NCBI GenBank assembly: GCA_000989185.1
Contig: LBNX01000004.1
Span: 23,797-87,796, forward strand
Direction of reading: 5' to 3'
From: a candidate division TM6 bacterium GW2011_GWF2_28_16
GTDB taxonomy: Bacteria; Babelota; Babeliae; Babelales; UASB340
Length of the DNA: 64,000 nt
A program made the translations under genes and the position numbers. Below are positions 767-15,074 of the stretch, piece after piece; the stretch's first letter is position 1, and each line of letters begins with the position of its first letter. The notes below the pieces were generated by a model. The model was not told where the DNA came from. It worked only from the letters and a program-made list of their open reading frames with translations, and made no database searches.

Positions 767-1645
767 TTAACGTGAGATAATTAACCAAATTATTAAAATA
801 ATTATTGGTATTGGCATATAATATGCAAATTTATATAATTTGCCAGATTCAGCAATTTGTTTAACTTTTTTGAAAATAAAATAAGAGATAATGCTAGCCC
901 AGCCTACGCACAAGGCTACGGCGGGCATGCTATAATTAGGTGAAATATAATAAATAAAGTTTTTATTTGTCATTATAATTTTATAAACCCCCAACAAAAA
1001 TCCAGCGCAAATAATTGGGAATTGTATTAAAAATGTTATTTCAAAATTTCTTTTTAAATTTTTATTTAATAAACTCGCAAAAAAGAATACTGCTGCAAAT
1101 CTTGATATACCTGGGATTAGTGCAAGCCCCTGCACAAGGCCAAGAAGGGCAAAATTTATCGCAATGTGATTATTCGCCAGGCGATAGCCTGGCTCTACCT
1201 CAATGCCGCCACGCCTTGCGGCGGGCTCAAATGCCAGCAATAAGCCTGTTATACAAAAGCCAGTGAGTAATAAAAAATTAGAATTATAAAAGCTTAAATT
1301 TGTGATATAAAATTTAAATAAAAGCCAGATTAAAACTGTTATGCTGTCAGCAATAAAAATAAGCGATATTATTTTAAAAAATATTTTATATAAATTTTTA
1401 TAAGAATCTTTTAAATATATTTTTTTATTAAGTATGCCTGATAATAATTTTTGTATAGGCCCCCACCAGTTTTTATAAAAAATTATTAATAATATAATTA
1501 TTGTTGGTAAGTGCAAAACGTAATCAAAATATTCTGGAATATTTATACCAAAAAGTTTTTCTGCTAATAAAAAATGGCCAGAGCTCGAGATTGGCAGTGA
1601 TTCTAATATTATTTGTATAAAAATAAATATGATAATATAAAACAT
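767..1645 (-). CDS. uppP: undecaprenyl-diphosphate phosphatase (BacA/UppP family)
   Basis: 292 aa polytopic membrane protein. N-terminal LPISSSGH matches the UppP LPxSSxGH motif, and GLALIPGISR matches the ALxPGxSRSG motif. Confidence 0.85.
   Translation of the reverse strand: MFYIIIFIFIQIILESLPISSSGHFLLAEKLFGINIPEYFDYVLHLPTIIILLIIFYKNWWGPIQKLLSGILNKKIYLKDSYKNLYKIFFKIISLIFIADSITVLIWLLFKFYITNLSFYNSNFLLLTGFCITGLLLAFEPAARRGGIEVEPGYRLANNHIAINFALLGLVQGLALIPGISRFAAVFFFASLLNKNLKRNFEITFLIQFPIICAGFLLGVYKIIMTNKNFIYYISPNYSMPAVALCVGWASIISYFIFKKVKQIAESGKLYKFAYYMPIPIIILIIWLIISR
1175..1228. repeat. GC-rich palindromic segment translated in frame within uppP
   Basis: 54 nt encoding EPAARRGGIEVEPGYRLA. Contains hairpin GCCAGGC-gata-GCCTGGC (1176-1193). 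Also contains GCCGCCACGCCTTGCGGCGGGC, which resembles the intergenic modules at 5291-5318 and 11891-11916. GC rises sharply here in an AT-rich gene. Confidence 0.5.
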
Positions 1646-1749: not shown

Positions 1750-1956
1750 ATGAAAAATTTCTTAGATGACTTGGCTCCAAATATTATAAAAAATAGTTCA
1801 GGACAAGAGATAGGTGTGTTTTTTGATATTAAAGATTATAATTTGCTTCTTGAGCATTTAGAAGAATTGTATTTGGGCAAAATTGCACAAAAAATTAAAA
1901 AAGAAGAAGGTGATAATTTAAAGAGCTTAGAAGATTTTGAAAAAGATCTTGATTAA
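1750..1956 (+). CDS. putative type II antitoxin (Phd/YefM-like)
   Basis: 68 aa acidic protein. Its stop lies 2 nt before a RelE/ParE-like remnant, which is the typical antitoxin-first arrangement. Confidence 0.5.
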   Translation: MKNFLDDLAPNIIKNSSGQEIGVFFDIKDYNLLLEHLEELYLGKIAQKIKKEEGDNLKSLEDFEKDLD

Positions 1957-2209: not shown

Positions 2210-2416
2210 TTTTAACAAATTAATATTTTTTTAATAACAAAGTTTTTCTTTCTACAAAAGAAGAGGCTGTTGGCCTCTCCTTTTGAAATCCTCACCAACA
2301 AAAGAGTAAACTCTTTTGAATCTCTTAACGCTCCAACTCACATTGCCGGTTGCGCACTACGTGCTATCCGGACAAATGTTCGGTGTAGCTAATAAAGTAT
2401 TTTTTATAAATTGTAG
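2210..2416 (+). repeat. family-1 intergenic repeat, copy 2 (alternative inner hairpin cassette)
   Basis: 2210-2332 matches 507-628 with only a few mismatches. The module A hairpin is replaced by a different GC-rich hairpin (ACATTGCCGG...CCGGACAAATGT, inner GCAC-tac-GTGC). The shared end AGCTAATAAAGTATTTTTTATAAATTGTAG is retained. Confidence 0.8.
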
Positions 2417-2467
2417 TTTGAAGTATATATGCGACAAGCAATACTTGTGTTAATAATCTAAAAAAAT

Positions 2468-2757: not shown

Positions 2758-3237
2758 TGATTTTAAAATAAATAATAATAAAAAATAATAAATAATAAAA
2801 AATAAATAAATTTAAATTAAAAAAATTACATAAAAATATAAAATTTCTACACCCCATTTACCTAGCTTTTAAAAGCTAAAAAACCCTTTATTTTTCAGTA
2901 TAATCTTTGCTTTTTGTCGATCAACAGAGGGTTGCAGAATAAAATTTTTTTTTAAAAAACTTGAAATGTGGATCAAGAGTTGCTAAGTTATAAGGCATAA
3001 TGATTTAGAAAAATAAAAAGTGAGACACAAACAACATAAATGTTAGTATGTTTATCTAGTTAAAGAAAGGAGGAGGCACAAAAACAATCTTTCTTTTTTT
3101 CTACTCGTAAGTTTTTACAAGACGTGTTTATAGTAACGAGTTTAGGTAAGTACTTTTAATTGAGTAAGTGAATTCGTCAATAACAGACATGTTTCATTTA
3201 CAAAATTAAAATCGTTTTTTTATAGGGGAAAGACAGT

Positions 3238-4761
3238 ATGAACAAACTGTTAAAAGGTTTACTTGTCACAGCTTTAGTTGTTGGCACCGTAAACGCAGAT
3301 ACAAACAAAACATTCTTAATGCCTAGATCAGCTGGCGTTAATCTTCCAATGGAATACACAACATTTAATGAATTAATTCAACATAAAAATGGCGACTTCT
3401 TTGGAGCTCATTTCCAAGTAGTTCCATTTTATATGGATTCAACAAATGGTTCTGATATAGGTAAGTATTTTGGTATTGCTGGCAAAAATACATTTGTAAT
3501 TGGTAACTCAACTTTAGTTACAGCAGGTACAGCTGATATGAATTATGGATATATAATTCATAATATAGCAACTGCAGCAACTGCTGGTGTTGCAACATTG
3601 AATTTTGATCCAGAACTACAAGCTTATGGTGCAAGAATTGATTATTATCAAGATTTAGAAAAAATTCTTGATGGTTTATATTTAAAAGTTGCATTACCTA
3701 TAGTTCACACTGAAACAAAGATAAATAGAACAGTTTCATCTGTTACAGCAAGTAACAATTTGACAGAAGCACACTTGAATGAATATTTTGCTGGTACTTA
3801 TTCTCAAGATATTGCAGATGCAAATGCTCAAGCAGTTCTTGAACATGCAAAAAGAGATGGTTCTCATTCAGAAACATCTGTTGCAGACATTGATGTAGTA
3901 TTAGGCTACAAGATTTGGGACAAAGAAAAATACTCTTTTGCATTAAATCTTGGCTTAACAATTCCTGTTGGCAATGATGCTGATGGAGATTGGGCATTTG
4001 AACCAATAGTCGGCAATGGCGATCATTGGGGCTTTGGTGGTGGCTTAGATGCAATGGTAAGACTTTGGAAGAAGAATGATCAAGATATTAAATTAACATT
4101 AGCAGCTAACTATAGATATTTATTCTCTGGTACAGAAAAGAGAACATTGGGCTTAAATGATGTTGATGGTGTAGAAGTTCCTTTTGGCCAATATTATTTA
4201 GCAGCAACAATTGGTGATATACGTAGAACTCAACAATTACAACCTGTTGCAAATCTTTTAACACAAGATGTTAAAGTAGAGACAGGCAGCCAATTGGATG
4301 CAGAGTTATATTTTACATATAACAATGGTGGCTGGAATGTAGAACTTGGCTATAACCTATTCTACAAAGATTCTGAAGATGTAAGTCTTAAGAATGCTTG
4401 GTCAGACGGAGTATATGGTATAGCATTTATAGATCAAACATTTGCTACTGGTGGTGATGGTACTTTCGTAGCATCTGCAGATGGTACTGCCGCTGTTGGT
4501 GCTAATGGTGGTTCTCGTGGTCTTATAAACAATACTCCAACAAATACAGCTTTAGGCCAAACAACCAGAGCTTATGGTATCAATACCCATGTCGCAGAAT
4601 CAGCATCACAATTTACAAACAAGATCTTTGGTGGCGTTGGATATATTTTCAGAGAATGGGAATATCCAATGATGCTAAACATCAGTGGTGCATATGAATT
4701 TGCTGATCGTGATGCAATTGAAAATTGGCAAATCTGGGGTAAGATTGGCGTTAAATTTTAA
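3238..4761 (+). CDS. secreted outer-membrane beta-barrel candidate, OMP family paralogue 1
   Basis: 507 aa with signal peptide MNKLLKGLLVTALVVGTVNA and a C-terminal ...WGKIGVKF ending in Phe. Clear paralogy with 6994-8571 and 13647-15074 (TNKT(F/Y)L..RS, DIGKYFG, LQP.AN.LTQ.VK..(T/P)GS.LD). SD GGGGAAAG upstream. Confidence 0.65.
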   Translation: MNKLLKGLLVTALVVGTVNADTNKTFLMPRSAGVNLPMEYTTFNELIQHKNGDFFGAHFQVVPFYMDSTNGSDIGKYFGIAGKNTFVIGNSTLVTAGTADMNYGYIIHNIATAATAGVATLNFDPELQAYGARIDYYQDLEKILDGLYLKVALPIVHTETKINRTVSSVTASNNLTEAHLNEYFAGTYSQDIADANAQAVLEHAKRDGSHSETSVADIDVVLGYKIWDKEKYSFALNLGLTIPVGNDADGDWAFEPIVGNGDHWGFGGGLDAMVRLWKKNDQDIKLTLAANYRYLFSGTEKRTLGLNDVDGVEVPFGQYYLAATIGDIRRTQQLQPVANLLTQDVKVETGSQLDAELYFTYNNGGWNVELGYNLFYKDSEDVSLKNAWSDGVYGIAFIDQTFATGGDGTFVASADGTAAVGANGGSRGLINNTPTNTALGQTTRAYGINTHVAESASQFTNKIFGGVGYIFREWEYPMMLNISGAYEFADRDAIENWQIWGKIGVKF

Positions 4762-4864: not shown

Positions 4865-4935
4865 TTATATGAATTTTTTATTTATATTTTAATTTTTGAG
4901 TTTTCGTTACTGATTAACTTATTTTAAATATAAAA

Positions 4936-5404
4936 TTTATTTCGTCTTTAGGGGACTTCATTTTGGAAGTCCCCTATAACCCCTGCAAACAAAAGAGTAA
5001 ACTCTTTTGAATCTCTTGACGCTTCAAATCGCACCCCTCCACCGTTGGTGGAACGGGTGTCTCGATGAAGCTAATAAAGTACTTTTTATAAATTGTAGCA
5101 TTATATCTAGTGTTTAATTTAAAGATCTCCATATTAGACTTACCTTGTCTGCCTGTCCGCCGTCCTGTCCATCGAAGCCTTGGCAAAGTTGGAAGCCTTG
5201 TGCAAAGGCTGGAAGTGCCTAATGACGTTAGTCAGGAGGCACGAGTTAAGTCGTAATAAAGGGTTTTAAAAGGGTCTTCCCTTTTGACCTGCCCGCCATA
5301 GCCTTGGCGACGGCTGGGTTTACAGGGGTTATAGGGGACCATTAAATACATCGATGCCCTTTAGGCGTTGAGATGAAATCATGGTCCCCTAAAGACGAAA
5401 TAAA
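4936..5404. mobile_element. 469-bp composite palindromic element bounded by perfect inverted repeats (MITE-like, no ORF)
   Basis: Outer IR is TTTATTTCGTCTTTAGGGGAC (4936-4956) against GTCCCCTAAAGACGAAATAAA (5384-5404), 21/21. Inner IR is GTCCCCTATAACCCCTG (4969-4985) against CAGGGGTTATAGGGGAC (5323-5339), 17/17. The interior carries module A (4986-5099), module B (5154-5212), module C (5258-5286) and a CGCCATAGCCTTGGCGACGGC module. Confidence 0.6.
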
Positions 5405-5489
5405 CTTTTTAAGTAAAAAAGAGTTAGTCAGAAAATATAACTTAGAAATTAAATTTAAATTAAATTTAAATTTTAAGTTATAATTCGTT

Positions 5490-5739
5490 TTAATTTACAA
5501 TTTTATTTTTAAAAATTTTAGCAATTTTATTTTTATCTAGTTTAGAACATGCTATATCAAGGCCTAAATTAACAAGTTCTTCATTTGTAAAATTTACGAT
5601 ATAGCCATTTAATTCTAAAAAGATTATTGCTGTCATAAGGCCAGTTCTTTTATTGCCATCAAAAAATGGATGATTTTTTAATTAATTGATCATGTATTTT
5701 AATAATTTGATTAATAGATAAAAAAATAATTTTAGACAT
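5490..5739 (-). pseudogene. doc: Doc/Fic-family toxin pseudogene (internal deletion plus frameshift)
   Basis: ATG at 5739 gives MSKIIFLSINQIIKIHDQLIKKSSIF then a stop. The adjacent frame reads HPFFDGNKRTGLMTAIIFLELNGYIVNFTNEELVNLGLDIACSKLDKNKIAKIFKNKIVN. HPFxDGNKRT is the Doc/Fic active-site motif. About 40 residues between the N-terminal helix and the motif are missing. Confidence 0.7.
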
Positions 5740-5743
5740 AGCT

Positions 5744-5935
5744 TTATTTATGCGCTAATTCTTTTAAGGCGTTAGAATATTTTTTTATATTTTTTTTAAC
5801 AATTTTATCAAATTTATTCTGATCTTGAATAACAAGGATGACTTTTATTTTACTGTTTTTTAATTTTTGTTTATATTTTTGTGGAATTTTTAAAAAACCA
5901 TTTTCTTCTTGTGTTATAAATTCTATTTTTTCCAT
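5744..5935 (-). CDS. putative antitoxin partner of the doc remnant
   Basis: 63 aa. Its stop lies 4 nt upstream of the doc-remnant ATG on the same strand, the antitoxin-first order. Confidence 0.5.
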   Translation of the reverse strand: MEKIEFITQEENGFLKIPQKYKQKLKNSKIKVILVIQDQNKFDKIVKKNIKKYSNALKELAHK

Positions 5936-5965
5936 ATTTTGTCCTTATAATAATAATTTTTAAAA

Positions 5966-5991
5966 TTATAACTTAAATTTGTTAGTTATAA
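5966..5991. promoter_or_regulatory. inverted repeat upstream of the antitoxin (candidate operator)
   Basis: TTATAACT-N10-AGTTATAA, a perfect 8-bp IR 31-56 nt upstream of the ATG at 5935. Confidence 0.3.
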
Positions 5992-6062
5992 AAATTTAAT
6001 AAAATTTAAATAAATTTAGCGTATTTTGATTATATAAATATTATAATTATTTGTTTTATAAC

Positions 6063-6112
6063 TTTTACTTGGCCTATAATTATACTTATTGCTATATTAA
6101 TTTTATTAAATA
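6063..6112 (+). repeat. 50-bp direct repeat, copy 1 (upstream of the MNT/HEPN pair)
   Basis: TTTTACTTGGCCTATAATTATACTTATTGCTATATTAATTTTATTAAATA. Matches 6875-6924 at 48/50. Confidence 0.85.
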
Positions 6113-6143
6113 TTTAAATGTTAAAAAAAACAGGAACATAAAT

Positions 6144-6458
6144 ATGAAAAATATTTTGGATGAAATAAAAAATAGATTAGTAAAAGTATATAGTCCTACA
6201 AAAATATATTTATTTGGCTCTAGCGCTTGGGGTAAGCAAACACCAGAAAGTGATTTAGACTTATTGATATTAATTCCAGAATCTAACGAAAGAAGTTACA
6301 AACGAGCAATTAAAGGAGAATTAGCTTTAGCAGATTTATTGGTTTCTAGAGATTTACTTGTTTATACAGAAAAAGAATTTGAATCTCTAGCAAGCGATGT
6401 AACTACTTTATGCTATAAAATAAAAAAAGAGGGAAAAGTAATCTATGCAAATGCATGA
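6144..6458 (+). CDS. nucleotidyltransferase-domain protein (MNT-type antitoxin)
   Basis: Start moved to the ATG at 6144, which has an AGGA SD. Contains the GS...D.D minimal nucleotidyltransferase motif (LFGSSAWGKQTPESDLDLLIL). Overlaps the downstream HEPN gene by 14 nt. Confidence 0.75.
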   Translation: MKNILDEIKNRLVKVYSPTKIYLFGSSAWGKQTPESDLDLLILIPESNERSYKRAIKGELALADLLVSRDLLVYTEKEFESLASDVTTLCYKIKKEGKVIYANA

Positions 6459-6864
6459 TGCATGGTTAAAAAAAGCTCATAGTGATTTATTAATAGCAAA
6501 AAAACTTTTTGATTTAAATGAGCTTGATTTATTTGATGGCGCAGCATATCACACTCAACAGTGTGCAGAAAAAGCTTTTAAATCATATTTGGCATATAAA
6601 AAACAAAATATTGAAAAAACACATAATTTAGTTTTATTGGTAAAATTATGTAGTCAGTATGATGCTGAATTTGAATCTTTATTGAATATATCAGCTATCT
6701 TAAATCCATATAGTATTAAATTTAGATATCCAGATGATGTAATGGTTCCAGAAAAGAGTGACTTAAAAGAGGCAATAGACTCTGCAGAAGTTATATTTAA
6801 ATTTATAAAGAAAAAAATTTCTGAGTTTAATACAGGACAGGGTAGTATATTTAGAAAATTATAA
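6445..6864 (+). CDS. HEPN-domain protein (toxin of the HEPN/MNT pair)
   Basis: 139 aa all-helical protein directly coupled to the MNT gene. The layout and size are typical of HEPN partners. Confidence 0.65.
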   Translation: MQMHDAWLKKAHSDLLIAKKLFDLNELDLFDGAAYHTQQCAEKAFKSYLAYKKQNIEKTHNLVLLVKLCSQYDAEFESLLNISAILNPYSIKFRYPDDVMVPEKSDLKEAIDSAEVIFKFIKKKISEFNTGQGSIFRKL

Positions 6865-6874
6865 ACTTTATAAA

Positions 6875-6924
6875 TTTTACTTGGTCTATAAATATACTTA
6901 TTGCTATATTAATTTTATTAAATA
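6875..6924 (+). repeat. 50-bp direct repeat, copy 2 (upstream of OMP paralogue 2)
   Basis: 48/50 identity with 6063-6112. The two copies bracket the complete MNT/HEPN operon. Confidence 0.85.
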
Positions 6925-6926
6925 GG

Positions 6927-6958
6927 ATTAGATCACGGCTCGGCGGCCGGGATGACAT
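6927..6958 (-). repeat. F-type hairpin repeat (GC-stem subtype)
   Basis: The rc reads GTCATCCCGGC-cgccga-GCCGTGATCTAA, with one stem mismatch. Confidence 0.65.
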
Positions 6959-6993
6959 ACTGTGTGATAGTATTTTTAAAAGAAAGAGAGAGT

Positions 6994-8571
6994 ATGAACA
7001 AAATTTCAAAAAATTTTATATTTAAATTTTTATTATTTTTAAATTTATTTTTTATAAATAATATTTATTCGACAGAAACAAATAAAACTTATCTTTTATC
7101 AAGATCTACTGGTGTAAACTTATCAATGGAGTACACGACTTTTAATAATTTTGTAAATTACAGAGATGATAAGCGTGCCCGGGATAATAAAGACAATAGC
7201 TTTGGGGCGCATATACAAGCAACGCCATATTATTTAGAATCGAATAATGGCAAAGATATAGGTAAATATTTTGGTTTTGATGATAAAAATATTTTACGAA
7301 TAGCTAGAAATAATATTGCTGGTTATGATCTAGATTTTAGATATATGGTGCATGATAATGTAAATACAGCAAATACAAATGCAATTGTAAAACTTGATCC
7401 AAAGTTTGAATCGTATGGTTTGCGTCTTGATTATTATCAAAAATTAGAAAAATTTCTCGATGGTTTATATTTTAAAATAGCTATACCAATATCTTATGTT
7501 AAAACAGATGTGCGATTAAATATTGCTGATCAGGCTGGATATTTTGTTGCTGGAACAAACACAGATTTGTATAAATATTTTGATGGCACTTATAATTTAC
7601 CTGTAGGTAATGCCCGAGCTCAAGCTGCTCTTGAATATGCAAAAATTTCTCAACATAAATTTTCAAAGACAAGCGTTGCAGATTTAGATTTAGTTTTAGG
7701 TTGCAAGTTTATAGATAGAGATAAATACTATGCAATAATAAATTTTGCATTAACAATACCAACAAATAACGAAGCTGGTGCCGGATATATGTTTGATGTA
7801 AATGTTGGCAATGGTAGTTATTGGGCTTTGGGTGGTGGGCTCGAAGGTATGATGCGCTTGTTTGGAAAAACAAATGATCATAATTTAAATTTAGTTGCAG
7901 TTGCAAATTATAGATATTTATTCGAAGGCAGAGCTGAGCGAACTATGGGTTTATTAAATCCAGATGGTACACGTGCAAACTGGGGCCAATATTATTTGGT
8001 TGGCGAAATTGGTACAGCTGTAAGTACACAACAGTTACAGCCTGCTGCAAATGTTTTGACACAAAGAGTAAAACTTGCTCCGGGTAGCCAATTAGATTCT
8101 ATGATCTATTTAAATTATAAATATTCTGGATTTACAGCAGAATTAGGTTATAACTTTTTCTGGCGTGATGACGAACAAATTAGTTTAAAAAATGAATGGC
8201 AAAATAATGTTTATGGCGTAGCAATTTTAGATCAAGATATGACTATTGCTGGAGGCGCAACTTTTGCAAACACTGGTTTTGCAGCTACAGCTGTACCTGT
8301 TAACGGTGGCTCTATGGGATATATTAATAATGACCCAGATAACACAGCTTTTACTGCTGCAGGAACAGTTGCAACTAGAGCTTATGGTTTAGATGAAGGT
8401 GTAGGTGCTGCCAGTTCACAAAATACACACAAAATTTTTGCTGGTTTGGGTTATGGCTTTTATGATTTTAAATTTCCCTGCATGCTTGGCATCGGCGGAG
8501 CATATGAATTTAATGGCGATGATGGAATTGAAAATTGGCAAGTTTATGGCAAAGTGGGATTAAAGTTTTAA
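6994..8571 (+). CDS. secreted outer-membrane beta-barrel candidate, OMP family paralogue 2
   Basis: Start moved to the ATG at 6994, after AGAAAGAGAGAG. Has a signal peptide and a C-terminal ...YGKVGLKF. Collinear with paralogue 1 along its whole length. Confidence 0.65.
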   Translation: MNKISKNFIFKFLLFLNLFFINNIYSTETNKTYLLSRSTGVNLSMEYTTFNNFVNYRDDKRARDNKDNSFGAHIQATPYYLESNNGKDIGKYFGFDDKNILRIARNNIAGYDLDFRYMVHDNVNTANTNAIVKLDPKFESYGLRLDYYQKLEKFLDGLYFKIAIPISYVKTDVRLNIADQAGYFVAGTNTDLYKYFDGTYNLPVGNARAQAALEYAKISQHKFSKTSVADLDLVLGCKFIDRDKYYAIINFALTIPTNNEAGAGYMFDVNVGNGSYWALGGGLEGMMRLFGKTNDHNLNLVAVANYRYLFEGRAERTMGLLNPDGTRANWGQYYLVGEIGTAVSTQQLQPAANVLTQRVKLAPGSQLDSMIYLNYKYSGFTAELGYNFFWRDDEQISLKNEWQNNVYGVAILDQDMTIAGGATFANTGFAATAVPVNGGSMGYINNDPDNTAFTAAGTVATRAYGLDEGVGAASSQNTHKIFAGLGYGFYDFKFPCMLGIGGAYEFNGDDGIENWQVYGKVGLKF

Positions 8572-11912: not shown

Positions 11913-11988
11913 TGGTGGAGCTAACCGGGGTCGAACCGGTGACCTCATGAATGCCATTCATGCGTTCTACCAACTGAACTATAGCCCC
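11913..11988 (-). tRNA. tRNA-Ala (anticodon GGC), CCA encoded
   Basis: The rc folds as a cloverleaf. Acceptor stem GGGGCTA/TAGCTCC carries the G3:U70 alanine identity pair. D arm is GTTC/GAAC. Anticodon stem CATGA/TCATG has loop ATGGCAT. T arm is ACCGG-TTCGACC-CCGGT, and the 3' end is ACCA. Confidence 0.9.
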
Positions 11989-12126: not shown

Positions 12127-13629
12127 ATGGAAAATTTATTTAAAATAATTAAAAAATTAAACCCAATATTAAAAGAAATAATAAATAATGGTTCTGTACC
12201 GTATCTTGTTGGTGGTAGCGTGCGAGATTTAGTTTTAAATTTAGAAACAAAAGATCTTGATATAGAAGTTCATAAAATATCTATAAAAGATTTAGAAAAA
12301 ATTTTAAAAAAATTTGGACATGTGCGTCTTGTTGGTCAAAAATTTGGTGTTTTAAAAATAGATGGAATAAACGTAGATTGGTCATTACCCAGAAAAGATA
12401 GTATTGGCAGAAAGCCAAAAGTTATAATAAAAAAAGATATTTCTATAAAAGATGCGCTTGTACGGCGTGATTTAACTATTAATGCAATGGCTATAGATTT
12501 GCGGGAGCTTTTAAAAAATAAAAATAATTTTAAAAAAATAATTATTGACCCATTTGGTGGCCTAAAAGATATTAAAAATAAAAAATTAAGAGTTATTGAT
12601 GCTAATTTTTTTGTTCAGGATCCTTTAAGATTATTTAGAGTTATGCAATTTGCAGCACGTTTTAATATGGCGCCAGATAAAAATTTAAATAATATTTGTA
12701 AAACTATGAGTTTGCAGGACCCAGCAACAGGAAAATTAATTTCGCGTGAACGAATTTTTGATGAAATTAAAAAATTATTATTAAAGAGTAAACAACCAAG
12801 TATTGGCTTTAGATGGCTATTAAAAATAAATAGATTAAAAGATATTTTTCCTGAAATTTATAATTTAATTGGTGTTAAACAGAAAAAAGAATATCATCCA
12901 GAGGGTGATGTGTTTGAGCACACTATGCAGTGTATAGATGTTGCTGCAAATCTTGATATTTATGAAACAGAAAACGAAAAATTCTTGATTATTTTAGCGC
13001 TTTTGTGTCACGATTTTGGCAAGCCAAAAGTTACAGATAAAAATTTATCAGCAATAGGGCACGAAAAAGAGGGCGTAGAAATTGCAAAAAAATTTTTAAA
13101 GCGAATTACGCGCGATAAAAATTTGATAAACTCTGTGTGCAAGTTGGTTTTGTATCACATGCAGCCAGCGCAATTATTAAAAAGTAATGCAAAAATTAGT
13201 GCATATAAAAGATTAGCTATAAAACTTGCCACAGATATAAACATGAAACAACTTGGCATTGTTTGGCTTGCGGATAATTTGGGACGGGTAGCGTATCGCT
13301 CGGGTAGACGCTTCGATACACCTCGCGTTGTTCGGCACTCAGCGCGAACGGGAAGTTTGAAAAAACACGCCGTGCAGGCTTTGTCATCCCGGGCAAGGAC
13401 CCGGGATCTAGAAAATAAAATAATAAGTGAGTTTAAACAATATTTAAAAATAATAAAAAATTTAAATATAGAAACAGGTCCGGAAAAGCCAATTTTACTT
13501 GGCCGTGATATTTTGGATAAAGTAAAACCAGGGCCTCAAATGGGTAAAATTTTAAAATGTGCTTATAAAATACAAATAGAGGAGGGTGTTAAAGATAAGG
13601 AGACGTTAAAGAAAAGAGTATTAAAGTAG
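12127..13629 (+). CDS. cca: CCA-adding enzyme / poly(A) polymerase family nucleotidyltransferase with HD domain
   Basis: N-terminal YLVGGSVRD...DLDIEV matches the class II nucleotidyltransferase GGxVRD...DxD motif. The HD-domain motif LLCHDFGK is present. Confidence 0.85.
   Translation: MENLFKIIKKLNPILKEIINNGSVPYLVGGSVRDLVLNLETKDLDIEVHKISIKDLEKILKKFGHVRLVGQKFGVLKIDGINVDWSLPRKDSIGRKPKVIIKKDISIKDALVRRDLTINAMAIDLRELLKNKNNFKKIIIDPFGGLKDIKNKKLRVIDANFFVQDPLRLFRVMQFAARFNMAPDKNLNNICKTMSLQDPATGKLISRERIFDEIKKLLLKSKQPSIGFRWLLKINRLKDIFPEIYNLIGVKQKKEYHPEGDVFEHTMQCIDVAANLDIYETENEKFLIILALLCHDFGKPKVTDKNLSAIGHEKEGVEIAKKFLKRITRDKNLINSVCKLVLYHMQPAQLLKSNAKISAYKRLAIKLATDINMKQLGIVWLADNLGRVAYRSGRRFDTPRVVRHSARTGSLKKHAVQALSSRARTRDLENKIISEFKQYLKIIKNLNIETGPEKPILLGRDILDKVKPGPQMGKILKCAYKIQIEEGVKDKETLKKRVLK
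13282..13413 (+). repeat. composite GC-rich palindromic element translated in frame within cca (ends in an F hairpin)
   Basis: 44 codons (about G386-E429, ...VAYRSGRRFDTPRVVRHSARTGSLKKHAVQALSSRARTRDLE). 13381-13413 is TTGTCATCCCGGG-caagga-CCCGGGATCTAGAA with a perfect stem. The 5' part shares CTCAG(C/G)GCGAACG(G/A)GA with 18462-18540. Confidence 0.75.
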
Positions 13630-13646: not shown

Positions 13647-15074
13647 ATGAAAAAAAATATTTTGTTATTATTAGTGCTTAGCTTATTTGCAGCTAACATA
13701 TCTGCATATACAAATAAAACATATATGCGCCCACAAGATAGTTCTACGTATTTACCAGATAGATTTAGAGTAAATGATTATTATAAAGCTGATTTTAAAA
13801 TGCCTAGCTTAATAGGTAAATTAGATATTACTGCTTATCATTTTCATTCTATAAGTAAAGATAAAATGGGAAGATATTTTGGTGTGAATGAAAAAAGTGA
13901 ATTTAATTTTATTGGTGATCAAACCAATGATGATATGGATATTGACTACAGATATTTAATTTCAAATTATTCTGCACATACTAATTATTCTGCAAAAATG
14001 AGTCTTGATCCAAAAACACAATATGCAGGCTTTAATGCATCTGTTATATTAGATTTATCTAGAATAAATAAACATTTAGCGTTTAAGATTAATGTTCCAT
14101 ATCAAAGAGTACATACAGATTTGCGTTCAAATTTTTCTTCTTCTAATGCAAGTTTGATTAAAGATTATTTAGCGGGTGATTATTCTTTAAATGTTGCAGC
14201 AGGTACTCGTAATCAAGAAGCATTAAGATATGCAAAAATTACTGATCAACAAGAAAAATTAGGCATTCCATTTATGGATTTTTGTCTTGCATATAACACT
14301 CATAACGAAGATGGTTTAATTAATACAGTAAAACTTGGATTTATTTCAACAGTAGAAAAAAAAGCTACAGCTGAATATCTTTTTGAACCAATATTAGGGA
14401 ACAATAATCACTTTGGTATTGATGTTGGTATTGAAGGTAGCAAAAGACTTTTTGATGGTAATGGTCATAGAAGTTTTGTAGATTTTGTTTGGGATTTAAA
14501 TTATAAATATTTATTCTCTAATACACAGTTTAGAACTTTGGGTATAAAGGGTGCAAACTGGGGACAATATTATTTATTAGGTAAAGAGGGCGTTTCTGGT
14601 GCATTTATTCCTGCTGCCAACGTTTTGACTCAAAATGTAAAAGTTGAACCAGGTAGTCACCTTGATTTAAATTTAGAATTATTATTTGGATATCATGCAT
14701 CTAGAGTTTCTGTTGGTGGTAATATTATTGCAAGACAAGAAGAAGAATTAGATTTTAAAAATAATCTTGCGACTCAAACTTATGGTGTAGTTACACCAGG
14801 AACATCTTCTGCTGTAAACTTTGATTTAAGTACTAATGTTGGACTTGGTAATTATACAACATATGCTTTAAGCAACGATAATATAGATTTAAAAGCTGCT
14901 CAAGCTCCAGGTATATTTGCTTACAAAGTTTATTTGCAGTATGCATATGATTATGTAAAACGAAATACAGAAAGAATGTTTACAGTCGCAACAGGTGTAT
15001 CTCTTAACATTACAGATCAGAATGCTCATTTTGACGGCATTGGGTGTTGGTTTAAGATGGCTGCATATTTTTAA
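13647..15074 (+). CDS. secreted outer-membrane beta-barrel candidate, OMP family paralogue 3 (divergent)
   Basis: 475 aa with signal peptide and TNKTYMRP start of the mature protein. Contains RYFG, NWGQYYLL and PAANVLTQNVKVEPGSHLD, and ends in Phe. Starts 17 nt after cca. Confidence 0.6.
   Translation: MKKNILLLLVLSLFAANISAYTNKTYMRPQDSSTYLPDRFRVNDYYKADFKMPSLIGKLDITAYHFHSISKDKMGRYFGVNEKSEFNFIGDQTNDDMDIDYRYLISNYSAHTNYSAKMSLDPKTQYAGFNASVILDLSRINKHLAFKINVPYQRVHTDLRSNFSSSNASLIKDYLAGDYSLNVAAGTRNQEALRYAKITDQQEKLGIPFMDFCLAYNTHNEDGLINTVKLGFISTVEKKATAEYLFEPILGNNNHFGIDVGIEGSKRLFDGNGHRSFVDFVWDLNYKYLFSNTQFRTLGIKGANWGQYYLLGKEGVSGAFIPAANVLTQNVKVEPGSHLDLNLELLFGYHASRVSVGGNIIARQEEELDFKNNLATQTYGVVTPGTSSAVNFDLSTNVGLGNYTTYALSNDNIDLKAAQAPGIFAYKVYLQYAYDYVKRNTERMFTVATGVSLNITDQNAHFDGIGCWFKMAAYF

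Follow-up and report, generated by a model that had tools for sequence, protein, structure and literature searches.

A probable long target duplication around an MNT-HEPN gene pair upstream of an outer-membrane protein gene in a Dependentiae (TM6) bacterium

Introduction

In a 64,000-nucleotide (nt) stretch from the candidate division TM6 bacterium GW2011_GWF2_28_16 (contig LBNX01000004.1, positions 23,797 to 87,796; called the window here), a gene for a minimal nucleotidyltransferase (MNT) and a gene for a HEPN-domain protein, predicted to be an antitoxin and a toxin, stand between two near-identical direct repeats, DR1 and DR2, and the second repeat lies upstream of a gene for an outer-membrane protein (OMP), the second of three paralogues and hence OMP2. 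How did the same piece of sequence come to lie on both sides of two genes? Which copy is the original one, and to which gene does it belong? Did the repeats travel with the gene pair, or were they made on its arrival? An initial annotation of this DNA had put three answers side by side: the arrival of the pair went along with duplication of the sequence upstream of the OMP gene, it can be excised by recombination between the repeats, or the repeat is a promoter module used twice. The best explanation is that a promoter-less MNT-HEPN cassette of ~0.74 kb inserted upstream of OMP2 and duplicated ~55-68 bp of the native upstream (promoter) region of that gene, by long target duplication; we give this reading a probability of about 0.77. 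Coordinates are collected in Table 1.

An empty site in a close relative

A search of 5.8 billion proteins with OMP2 found only two close relatives (P0001 and P0002). P0001, an orthologue with 82% amino-acid (aa) identity, is encoded on a Logan contig of 2448 nt (L002) whose DNA is 81.7% identical to the window over 2208 nt, across OMP2 and the 3' end of murC. What precedes OMP2 there? The order is a left-flank element common to both, a spacer of ~70 nt, a single copy of the repeat and a 31-nt leader, while the MNT-HEPN pair, the phd/doc module and the GC-rich hairpin of the window are all absent from this contig. Because L002 has one copy and no cassette, the repeat is read as the native OMP2 upstream region, and the window from ~5430 to 6856 as extra DNA. 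A relative with a single repeat copy and no cassette was the check that the initial annotation had proposed, and L002 is such a relative: with its left flank, one copy, OMP2 and murC, it supports arrival of the cassette with a duplication of the OMP upstream region. The contig of P0002 (L003; 99% identical to OMP2) begins inside OMP2, and the upstream region falls outside it.

The same contig dates the event. DR1 and DR2 are each 81% identical to the L002 copy, which equals the divergence of the coding DNA, and they are 94.8% identical to each other (55 of 58 ungapped positions, 6055-6112 against 6867-6924). Since they resemble each other so much more than either resembles L002, the repeat was duplicated after the window and L002 lineages had parted. 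Some drift has followed in both copies: at the three positions where they differ, L002 has the base of DR1 in two cases and that of DR2 in one.

The two repeats

The best-matched core, 6063-6112 against 6875-6924, is identical at 48 of 50 positions, the two mismatches being C/T at 6073/6885 and T/A at 6081/6893. The 50-bp repeats of the initial annotation, 812 apart, are borne out, 812 being the start-to-start spacing, and the similarity extends further, to 68 nt at 90% identity (6045-6112 against 6857-6924); the longest run free of mismatches is 32 nt. That the repeats bracket the MNT and HEPN genes holds as well, both open reading frames (ORFs) being intact, overlapping and placed between them. 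DR1 ends 31 nt before the MNT ATG, and the 68-nt DR2 starts within the final HEPN codons, with the HEPN stop codon (6862-6864) inside it. After DR2 come a GC-rich stem-loop (the F hairpin) and then the OMP2 start at 6994, again as annotated.

Could such a match be fortuitous? None of 100 dinucleotide shuffles of the window gave any match to the repeat, and the best ungapped direct-match score around the cassette is 49, against a shuffle maximum of 15. Within the 64-kb window there are two copies only, both for the 50-mer (up to 3 mismatches) and for a 21-nt core, TTATTGCTATATTANTNTTAT. A scan of genome contigs with this core gave 60 chance matches in unrelated taxa and no Dependentiae record, the source genome seemingly lying outside the collection, and a scan of metagenome contigs with a 37-nt degenerate repeat pattern gave 0 matches. 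An independent ENA re-assembly (L001, groundwater metagenome SRR1658473) has the same arrangement with 0 mismatches over 16.8 kb. Assembly collapse is unlikely: the contig name k127_783533 suggests k = 127, and the repeat measures 68 nt.

Other identities for the repeat were considered and set aside. A generic promoter or dispersed repeat is rejected, as 64 kb contain no more than two copies, and the sequence upstream of OMP1 shows no relation to them; occurrence upstream of many genes, which the initial annotation had named as a ground for refutation, is not observed, the sequence being absent before the other genes of the window, including OMP paralogues 1 and 3. An 11-nt core, allowing one mismatch, is weakly enriched in the window (15 matches against 7.6 expected; 2 of 100 shuffles reach that number). 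The fold energy of the repeats is -1 to -2.4 kcal/mol (z = +0.2 to +0.7), so that they have no hairpin potential, and an attC-like or otherwise structured site was dropped for this reason; an integron gene cassette was dropped for the same lack of a hairpin, for the presence of two copies only and because no integrase was found in the ORFs sampled up to 28.6 kb. A dif/Xer-like reading, made by eye, fails on the ATAA-N6-TTAT core, which is not conserved in L002. Rfam at gathering thresholds reports only a tRNA at 11916-11988 and no known RNA family at the repeat.

The duplicated region and OMP2

What was duplicated? Each copy holds a promoter-like site in the same register. Its -35 and -10 elements stand at the 16-18 nt expected of a sigma-70-type promoter and at an orthologous position in L002, with a weaker -35 in DR2 and L002: TTGGTC of DR2 agrees with the consensus at 3 of 6 positions, slightly under the scan threshold, and L002 has TTGTTC. 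Two blocks of the repeat, TTTATAACTTTTACTTG and TTATTGCTATATTA, are perfectly conserved in L002. These are 17 nt ending in the TTG of the -35 and 14 nt containing TGCTATATT; between window and L002 the sequence of the spacer varies and its length is kept. This conservation supports the promoter reading without proving it. Transcription would be predicted to start ~7 nt past the -10, near 6105 from DR1 and, for OMP2, near 6917 from DR2. The TTGCTA pointed out in the initial annotation is present, but is better taken for the TGn and first bases of an extended -10 (TGCTATATT), whose -35, TTGGCC or TTGGTC, lies 18 nt upstream. A promoter module used twice, as predicted from these motifs, is consistent with the data. 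No terminator was found after HEPN in the window sequence, and transcripts from copy 1 would therefore probably read through into OMP2.

OMP2 itself has no Pfam match. Its AlphaFold model (pLDDT 81.7) finds FapF, the COG4313 channel and FadL-type barrels as top PDB folds with Foldseek, and as modelled the protein is a real beta-barrel outer-membrane protein. The F hairpin in its leader has no counterpart in L002 or beside DR1, and a related element lies at 13380-13410 on the minus strand inside the ORF of the CCA-adding enzyme, with the shared ends GATC.CGG…CCGGGATGACA. As the orthologous OMP2 leader in L002 lacks it, the hairpin is a recent insertion from a small mobile hairpin family.

A separate observation concerns the leaders. 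Three times a stretch of 31 nt separates the repeat end from a start codon, namely before MNT (window 6113-6143), before OMP2 once the hairpin is removed (6963-6993) and before OMP2 of L002 (235-265). By eye the MNT and OMP2 leaders agree at 13 of 31 positions, which is background-like for AT-rich DNA, and the equal spacing is possibly a coincidence.

The MNT-HEPN cassette

The inserted DNA has a GC content of 26.9%, against 29.7% for the window. Both of its domains score above the Pfam threshold, and the two ORFs overlap by 14 nt. MNT reaches 38 bits with the NCBIfam MntA model NF047752, under the cut-off of 60, and it matches the PADLOC candidate PDC-S09 (E 1.2e-11). For HEPN the top PDB match, and the sole PDB entry detectable by sequence, is 1ufb, TT1696 (E 1.2e-3); neither HEPN nor MNT has a sequence match to the solved HepT/MntA structures. 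The invariant residues of HEPN are YHTQQCAEK, KTH and RYP(D/G/E), and no Rx4-6H motif is found, RYPDD standing in its place. The gene pair is thus best described as an MNT/HEPN-T (PF01909 + PF05168) module with predicted toxin-antitoxin (TA) activity; the HEPN-T class is that of Table 1 of PMC3710099. The label 'toxin-antitoxin operon' of the initial annotation stands as regards an intact MNT-HEPN pair and remains a prediction as regards function, the HEPN of PF05168 lacking the canonical Rx4-6H.

How close is this pair to the type VII system HepT/MntA? It shares the layout, a small MNT gene directly upstream of and overlapping a small HEPN gene, and its MNT carries the GSx(n)DxD nucleotidyltransferase motif. 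It differs in that its HEPN belongs to PF05168 (HEPN-T) and not to DUF86/HepT, has RYPDD instead of Rx4-6H, and is paired with an MNT that stays below the MntA cut-off; toxicity of HEPN and its neutralisation by MNT-catalysed AMPylation would be predictions for this pair.

The order MNT-then-HEPN is conserved among homologues, MNT being immediately 5' of HEPN in 79 of 83 loci (80 fetched metagenome loci, the window, L004 and L005). The last two carry the nearest homologues of the cassette (HEPN 73% and MNT 80% aa in L004, HEPN 70% and MNT 69% aa in L005), in other genomic contexts and without flanking repeats. The repeat as a part of the cassette was rejected on this evidence, and because the cassettes of L004 and L005 lie at other sites without such repeats, the repeat belongs to the target. 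Relatives carrying the cassette without repeats had been named beforehand as a refutation; this is literally what L004 and L005 do, but at other genomic sites, in keeping with a cassette that came in with duplication of its target.

Where are the ends of the cassette? DNA homology among the window, L004 and L005 runs from the MNT ATG to the HEPN stop. HEPN of the window ends in …SIFRKL and its two nearest homologues end in …SIFNN and …SIFKKS, and because they end alike, the C-terminus is taken to be native to the cassette. The right junction would accordingly lie within a shared ATTATAA microhomology, set in an imperfect match of ~20 nt.

Recurrence at other MNT-HEPN loci

Is this a single accident? 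Eighty metagenome loci encode homologues of the window HEPN with 39-54% aa identity. For the 47 with enough flank, the best ungapped direct match was sought between the two flanks, 300 nt on the 5' side of MNT and 300 nt on the 3' side of HEPN. Five of them (L085, L083, L078, L097 and L145) score 22-37, where shuffle maxima are 10-15 and the window scores 49. Of 604 controls with the same geometry, shifted by ±400-3000 nt inside the same loci, 2 score as high (Fisher p = 3e-5 against 5 of 47), and both of these control matches bracket a second, more distant MNT-HEPN pair in L150.

The bracketing repeats are 28-73 nt long (28-72 nt at the five loci), unrelated between loci and made of local sequence, be it a gene overlap, a gene end or the start of a gene (Table 1). 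At L097 the duplicated start, with its ribosome-binding site and first two codons, now begins MNT. For L078, which appears to be a Babeliales/Dependentiae genome judging by the names of its homologues, empty sites are available: in L151 and L152 (81% and 74% aa identity in the upstream gene) that gene overlaps rpiB directly, with no cassette, and the 42-nt target that is duplicated on both sides of the L078 cassette is single-copy in both. L083 and L085 are near-identical and probably represent one organism, and were not counted as a clean case. In all, occupied and empty sites are verified for two cassettes (those of the window and L078), and three or more other loci bear the signature.

L150 carries, at 1028-2644, two different MNT-HEPN pairs in tandem, the first an insertion with a 4Fe-4S oxidoreductase gene on one side and the second pair on the other. 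Since the first pair was inserted beside the second, cassettes can accumulate at the same spot.

Comparison with known insertion types

Insertion with long target duplication was described for restriction-modification (RM) gene units by Kobayashi's group (Nobusato et al. 2000, Gene 259:99; Furuta, Abe & Kobayashi 2010, PMC2853133). The class is defined by a complete module without mobility genes, flanked by direct repeats of variable length above 30 bp that are single-copy in an empty-site genome, and the duplications frequently span the start or stop codons of the neighbours (PMC2853133). How does the window locus compare? Its insert, for which the bound is 20 kb, measures ~0.74 kb and consists of two ORFs, MNT and HEPN, both intact and overlapping. 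Integrase or transposase domains were found neither in positions 1-16 kb of the window nor in ten ORFs between 16.6 and 28.6 kb. The repeat exceeds 30 bp at either extent (55 of 58 positions, or 68 nt at 90%), and both copies align to the one copy of L002 between conserved flanks. The class also asks for a repeat that is not dispersed over the genome; within the 64 kb of the window the two copies are the only ones. As with RM units, there is no transposase, integrase or inverted repeat at the locus, the repeats lie at gene boundaries of the neighbours and the flanking genes are intact. The cargo is not an RM system but PF01909 + PF05168, an RNase-type, TA-like pair that does not cleave DNA; the host is a member of the Dependentiae, and the duplicated target is a putative promoter that the cassette has apparently captured. 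The locus works like the long-target-duplication class, and its cargo is outside the class as described. The RM authors' idea of DNA double-strand breaks made by the element is inapplicable here because the cargo is not DNA-cleaving. No paper reporting insertion with long target duplication for TA modules was found in a literature search that was not exhaustive, and the TA-system reviews found cite the long-target-duplication work for RM systems only.

Two more familiar kinds of insertion also leave direct repeats. Transposons, like this event, copy their target on both sides of the insert. Their duplications come with terminal inverted repeats and a transposase. They are short and of fixed length, typically <10 bp, with 19-26 bp for IS1630 (PMC2853133), unlike the 55-68 bp of the window and the 28-73 bp of the other loci, where neither inverted repeats nor a transposase were seen. 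Campbell-type integration, as in the attL and attR of prophages, islands and IMEX elements, likewise leaves direct repeats on either side of the insert and has one copy where the site is empty; it differs in its recombinase and conserved att core, neither of which is seen at this locus, where length and sequence of the repeat are locus-specific and derived from local genes.

Weighing the alternatives

Could the same end state have been reached in two steps? The cassette might have landed between the OMP2 promoter and OMP2, and a later duplication or gene conversion might have copied the promoter downstream, selected for OMP2 expression. Both copies do keep promoter-like blocks, and with no terminator in the cassette polarity effects on OMP2 are plausible. 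This route is nevertheless unlikely, because two separate events would each have had to end precisely at the cassette borders, because the same bracket geometry recurs at other loci, and because the duplicated segment is a gene overlap in L078 and a gene 3' end in L150, where restoring a promoter makes no sense. Somewhat less probable still is the opposite direction of change, with cassette and both repeats ancestral and the single copy of L002 the scar of a precise excision. Recombination of the 55-68-bp repeats, with their perfect run of 32 nt, would leave exactly one copy, and there is no outgroup. However, DR1 and DR2 are 94.8% alike and each only 81% identical to L002, the relative is also without the phd/doc module and the hairpin, which both lie outside the bracket of the repeats, and an earlier insertion with duplication would be needed in any case.

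The repeats as attL and attR of a tiny non-autonomous integrative element, moved in trans by a recombinase (an integrase, Xer or an integron-like enzyme), make a rather improbable third rival. Site-specific integration does yield direct repeats of tens of bp around the insert, and the 38-nt GC-rich hairpin abutting DR2 comes from a dispersed element family; against this, the sampled 0-28.6 kb yielded no recombinase gene, a hairpin like that of attC is missing from the repeat, related cassettes elsewhere lack the sequence, and the repeats of other loci are unrelated pieces of local genes, 28-73 nt long, which a fixed att core does not fit. Chance similarity in DNA of ~30% GC, or an artefact of metagenome assembly, hardly deserves credence in view of the shuffles (0 of 100; score 49 against at most 15), the identical independent re-assembly and a repeat shorter than the suggested k.

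Insertion with long target duplication therefore remains the preferred reading, and several points weigh against it. There is one empty-site relative only, a single 2.4-kb Logan contig, and no outgroup by which insertion and precise excision could be polarised; the duplication could be older than it looks if gene conversion has acted between the copies. The uniqueness of the repeat is established for 64 kb of the source genome only. Promoter function is argued from consensus and conservation: the conserved runs of 17 and 14 bases are just mildly unusual at 81% identity, and the -35 of DR2 falls under the scan threshold. As for recurrence, the controls were shifted positions and not other accessory cassettes, and L083 and L085 are probably one organism with a complex locus.

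A possible mechanism and its meaning

How might such an insertion come about? The cassette would have entered between the promoter region and the leader of OMP2, in the lineage of this Dependentiae (TM6) bacterium. Copy 1 (TTGGCC-N18-TGcTATATT), 31 nt upstream of MNT, most likely transcribes the cassette, and copy 2 would leave OMP2 with a promoter of its own and a hairpin in its leader, so that the downstream gene would not be orphaned. Recombination between the copies, along their perfect run of 32 nt, could in principle delete exactly the cassette, which makes the excision put forward in the initial annotation feasible. The favoured route of insertion is microhomology-mediated template switching or illegitimate joining while DNA is replicated or repaired. 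Selection would presumably have come next: where genes are densely packed, both the neighbours and the cassette would stay expressed only if the insertion duplicated the junction and did not delete it. A transposase-type staggered cut and a fixed att site would be excluded, because the repeats vary in length and are local in origin. HEPN proteins are RNases or nucleotide-binding proteins, not DNases, and DNA breakage by the element is for that reason not needed.

Replication forks may have stalled at the GC-rich hairpin, which abuts the right edge of the repeat exactly; this would require that the hairpin preceded the cassette. By GC skew the plus strand is the leading strand across the window, and the end of DR1 corresponds exactly to the start of the hairpin on the DR2 side; with the ATTATAA microhomology at the return junction, these features fit a stalled-fork version of the event.

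Is the route a general one? Long target duplication may serve MNT-HEPN cassettes, and perhaps TA modules at large, as a recombinase-free way of moving, the cassettes being trimmed to their ORFs, placed at gene boundaries and co-oriented, with a 28-73-nt duplication that preserves the neighbours and supplies a promoter, a ribosome-binding site or a start codon. We hold this generalisation tentatively, at slightly less than even odds. If true, the event is host-driven, for example by template switching at stalled forks such as the hairpin next to DR2 might cause, and not by breaks of the element's making. The spread of TA modules into chromosomes without mobility genes is poorly understood, and the window locus shows both the occupied and the empty site. 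The long-target-duplication signature is now seen with a cargo that does not cut DNA, and its presence at ~10% of related cassettes, in unrelated metagenomic lineages, makes a systematic survey and tests of mechanism possible. A selfish cassette can, on this reading, capture a host promoter without silencing the downstream gene, which is relevant to the small, gene-dense genomes of the Dependentiae. The locus is a well-documented case of insertion with long target duplication, with a new kind of cargo and a probable promoter capture. Taken alone it is an event of evolution that is well explained; what makes it interesting is the recurrence, through which the recombinase-free spread of TA-like cassettes can be tested.

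Table 1. Features of the window and repeats around other MNT-HEPN loci (coordinates of the latter refer to the named locus)
Feature	Coordinates	Strand	Description and support
Left flank common with L002	5319..5429	+	Element GGGGTTATAGGGGAC...GTCCCCTAAAGACGAAATAAA; L002 23-101 aligns to 5319-5347 and 5376-5429
phd-like ORF and doc/Fic pseudogene	5490..5935	-	phd-like ORF 5744-5935, 63 aa; doc/Fic pseudogene 5490-5739, in-frame stop, HPFFDGNKR kept; Fic PF02661 E 1.5e-6
DR1, duplicated copy of the OMP2 upstream region	6045..6112 (well-matched core 6055-6112)	+	55/58 to DR2, 47/58 to the single L002 copy
Promoter-like site in DR1	6069..6098	+	-35 TTGGCC (6069-6074), 18-nt spacer, extended -10 TGcTATATT (6090-6098); consensus scan 9/12, TG before -10
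Inserted DNA, ~0.74 kb	6113..6856	+	31-nt leader with AGGA ribosome-binding site, MNT and HEPN ORFs; absent from L002
MNT, minimal nucleotidyltransferase, predicted antitoxin, 104 aa	6144..6458	+	Motif GSSAWGKQTPESDLDL; PF01909 E 1.1e-12, PF18765 E 1.3e-12
HEPN, PF05168 / 'HEPN-T' class, predicted toxin, 139 aa	6445..6864	+	PF05168 E 7.6e-23
DR2, OMP2 upstream region, native position	6857..6924	+	Left extension ATTATAAACTTTATAA identical in L002
Promoter-like site in DR2	6881..6910	+	-35 TTGGTC, 18-nt spacer, TGcTATATT; same register as DR1
GC-rich element, ~38 nt ('F hairpin')	6925..6962	+	Stem-loop 6932-6953, in OMP2 leader at exact right edge of DR2; fold z = -2.2
OMP2, predicted beta-barrel outer-membrane protein, 525 aa	6994..8571	+	Gene with duplicated upstream region
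L078 repeats	2154-2195 and 2907-2948		42 nt spanning the overlap of the upstream gene and rpiB
L097 repeats	1611-1660 and 2387-2440		~55 nt: promoter-like sequence, ribosome-binding site, first two codons of the downstream gene
L145 repeats	2111-2138 and 2926-2953		Spacer with TATAAT, upstream of a helicase gene
L150 repeats	914-986 and 1784-1856		73 nt copied from the 3' end of the 4Fe-4S/oxidoreductase gene upstream
L083/L085 repeats	1897-2172 and 2989-3301		Near-identical loci, same repeat families, complex arrangement

The surroundings of the cassette

The MNT-HEPN pair is not the only small module near OMP2. The phd/doc genes, absent from L002 and with no significant flanking repeat, read as a decaying second TA module. 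A 30-nt direct repeat of 80% identity around them (5442-5471 and 5982-6011) scores 12, the noise level of the shuffles, and was not counted. Between uppP and OMP1, at 1750-2117, lies a RelB-like pair, a 68-aa ORF (PF18506 E 7e-4, under the cut-off) followed by a 52-aa ORF; it is possibly a third small TA-like pair within 6 kb, and no direct repeats were found around it. In other Dependentiae (L066-L070) the region from uppP to the OMP genes differs in its accessory genes from genome to genome, with a DUF5674 pair, an NTP_transf_2/NTase_sub_bind fusion, Y1 transposases, GIY-YIG genes and tandem OMP paralogues; the OMP homologue loci of these genomes are too divergent to serve as further empty sites. 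The region is a conserved plasticity zone, which in the window contains the RelB-like pair, phd/doc, MNT-HEPN and GC-rich elements. The Y1 transposases could act as RAYT-like mobilisers of the GC-rich hairpins.

Inverted arms of ~70-100 nt (GTCCCCTAAAGACGAAATAAA / GGGGTTATAGGGGAC), at 4922-4990 and 5318-5418, enclose a GC-rich segment of 330 nt in the interval between OMP1 and the TA genes, an arrangement like that of a miniature inverted-repeat transposable element. The same element also flanks the empty site of L002 (L002 1-101), and a similar one lies just 5' of the L005 cassette (L005 30-70).

The three paralogous OMPs of ~500 aa, predicted to be beta-barrels (3238-4761, 6994-8571 and 13647-15074), have no Pfam or NCBIfam match, and the family appears restricted to Dependentiae/Babeliales, often in tandem arrays. 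In this genome of 30% GC, GC-rich repeat elements also stand in frame within housekeeping ORFs, at 1172-1241 in uppP (767-1645, minus strand) and at 13279-13413 in the gene for the CCA-adding enzyme (12127-13629). They resemble the Rickettsia palindromic elements, which insert into coding genes, and uppP has an extra segment of 9 aa (…EPAARRGGIEVEPGYRL…) relative to its orthologues.

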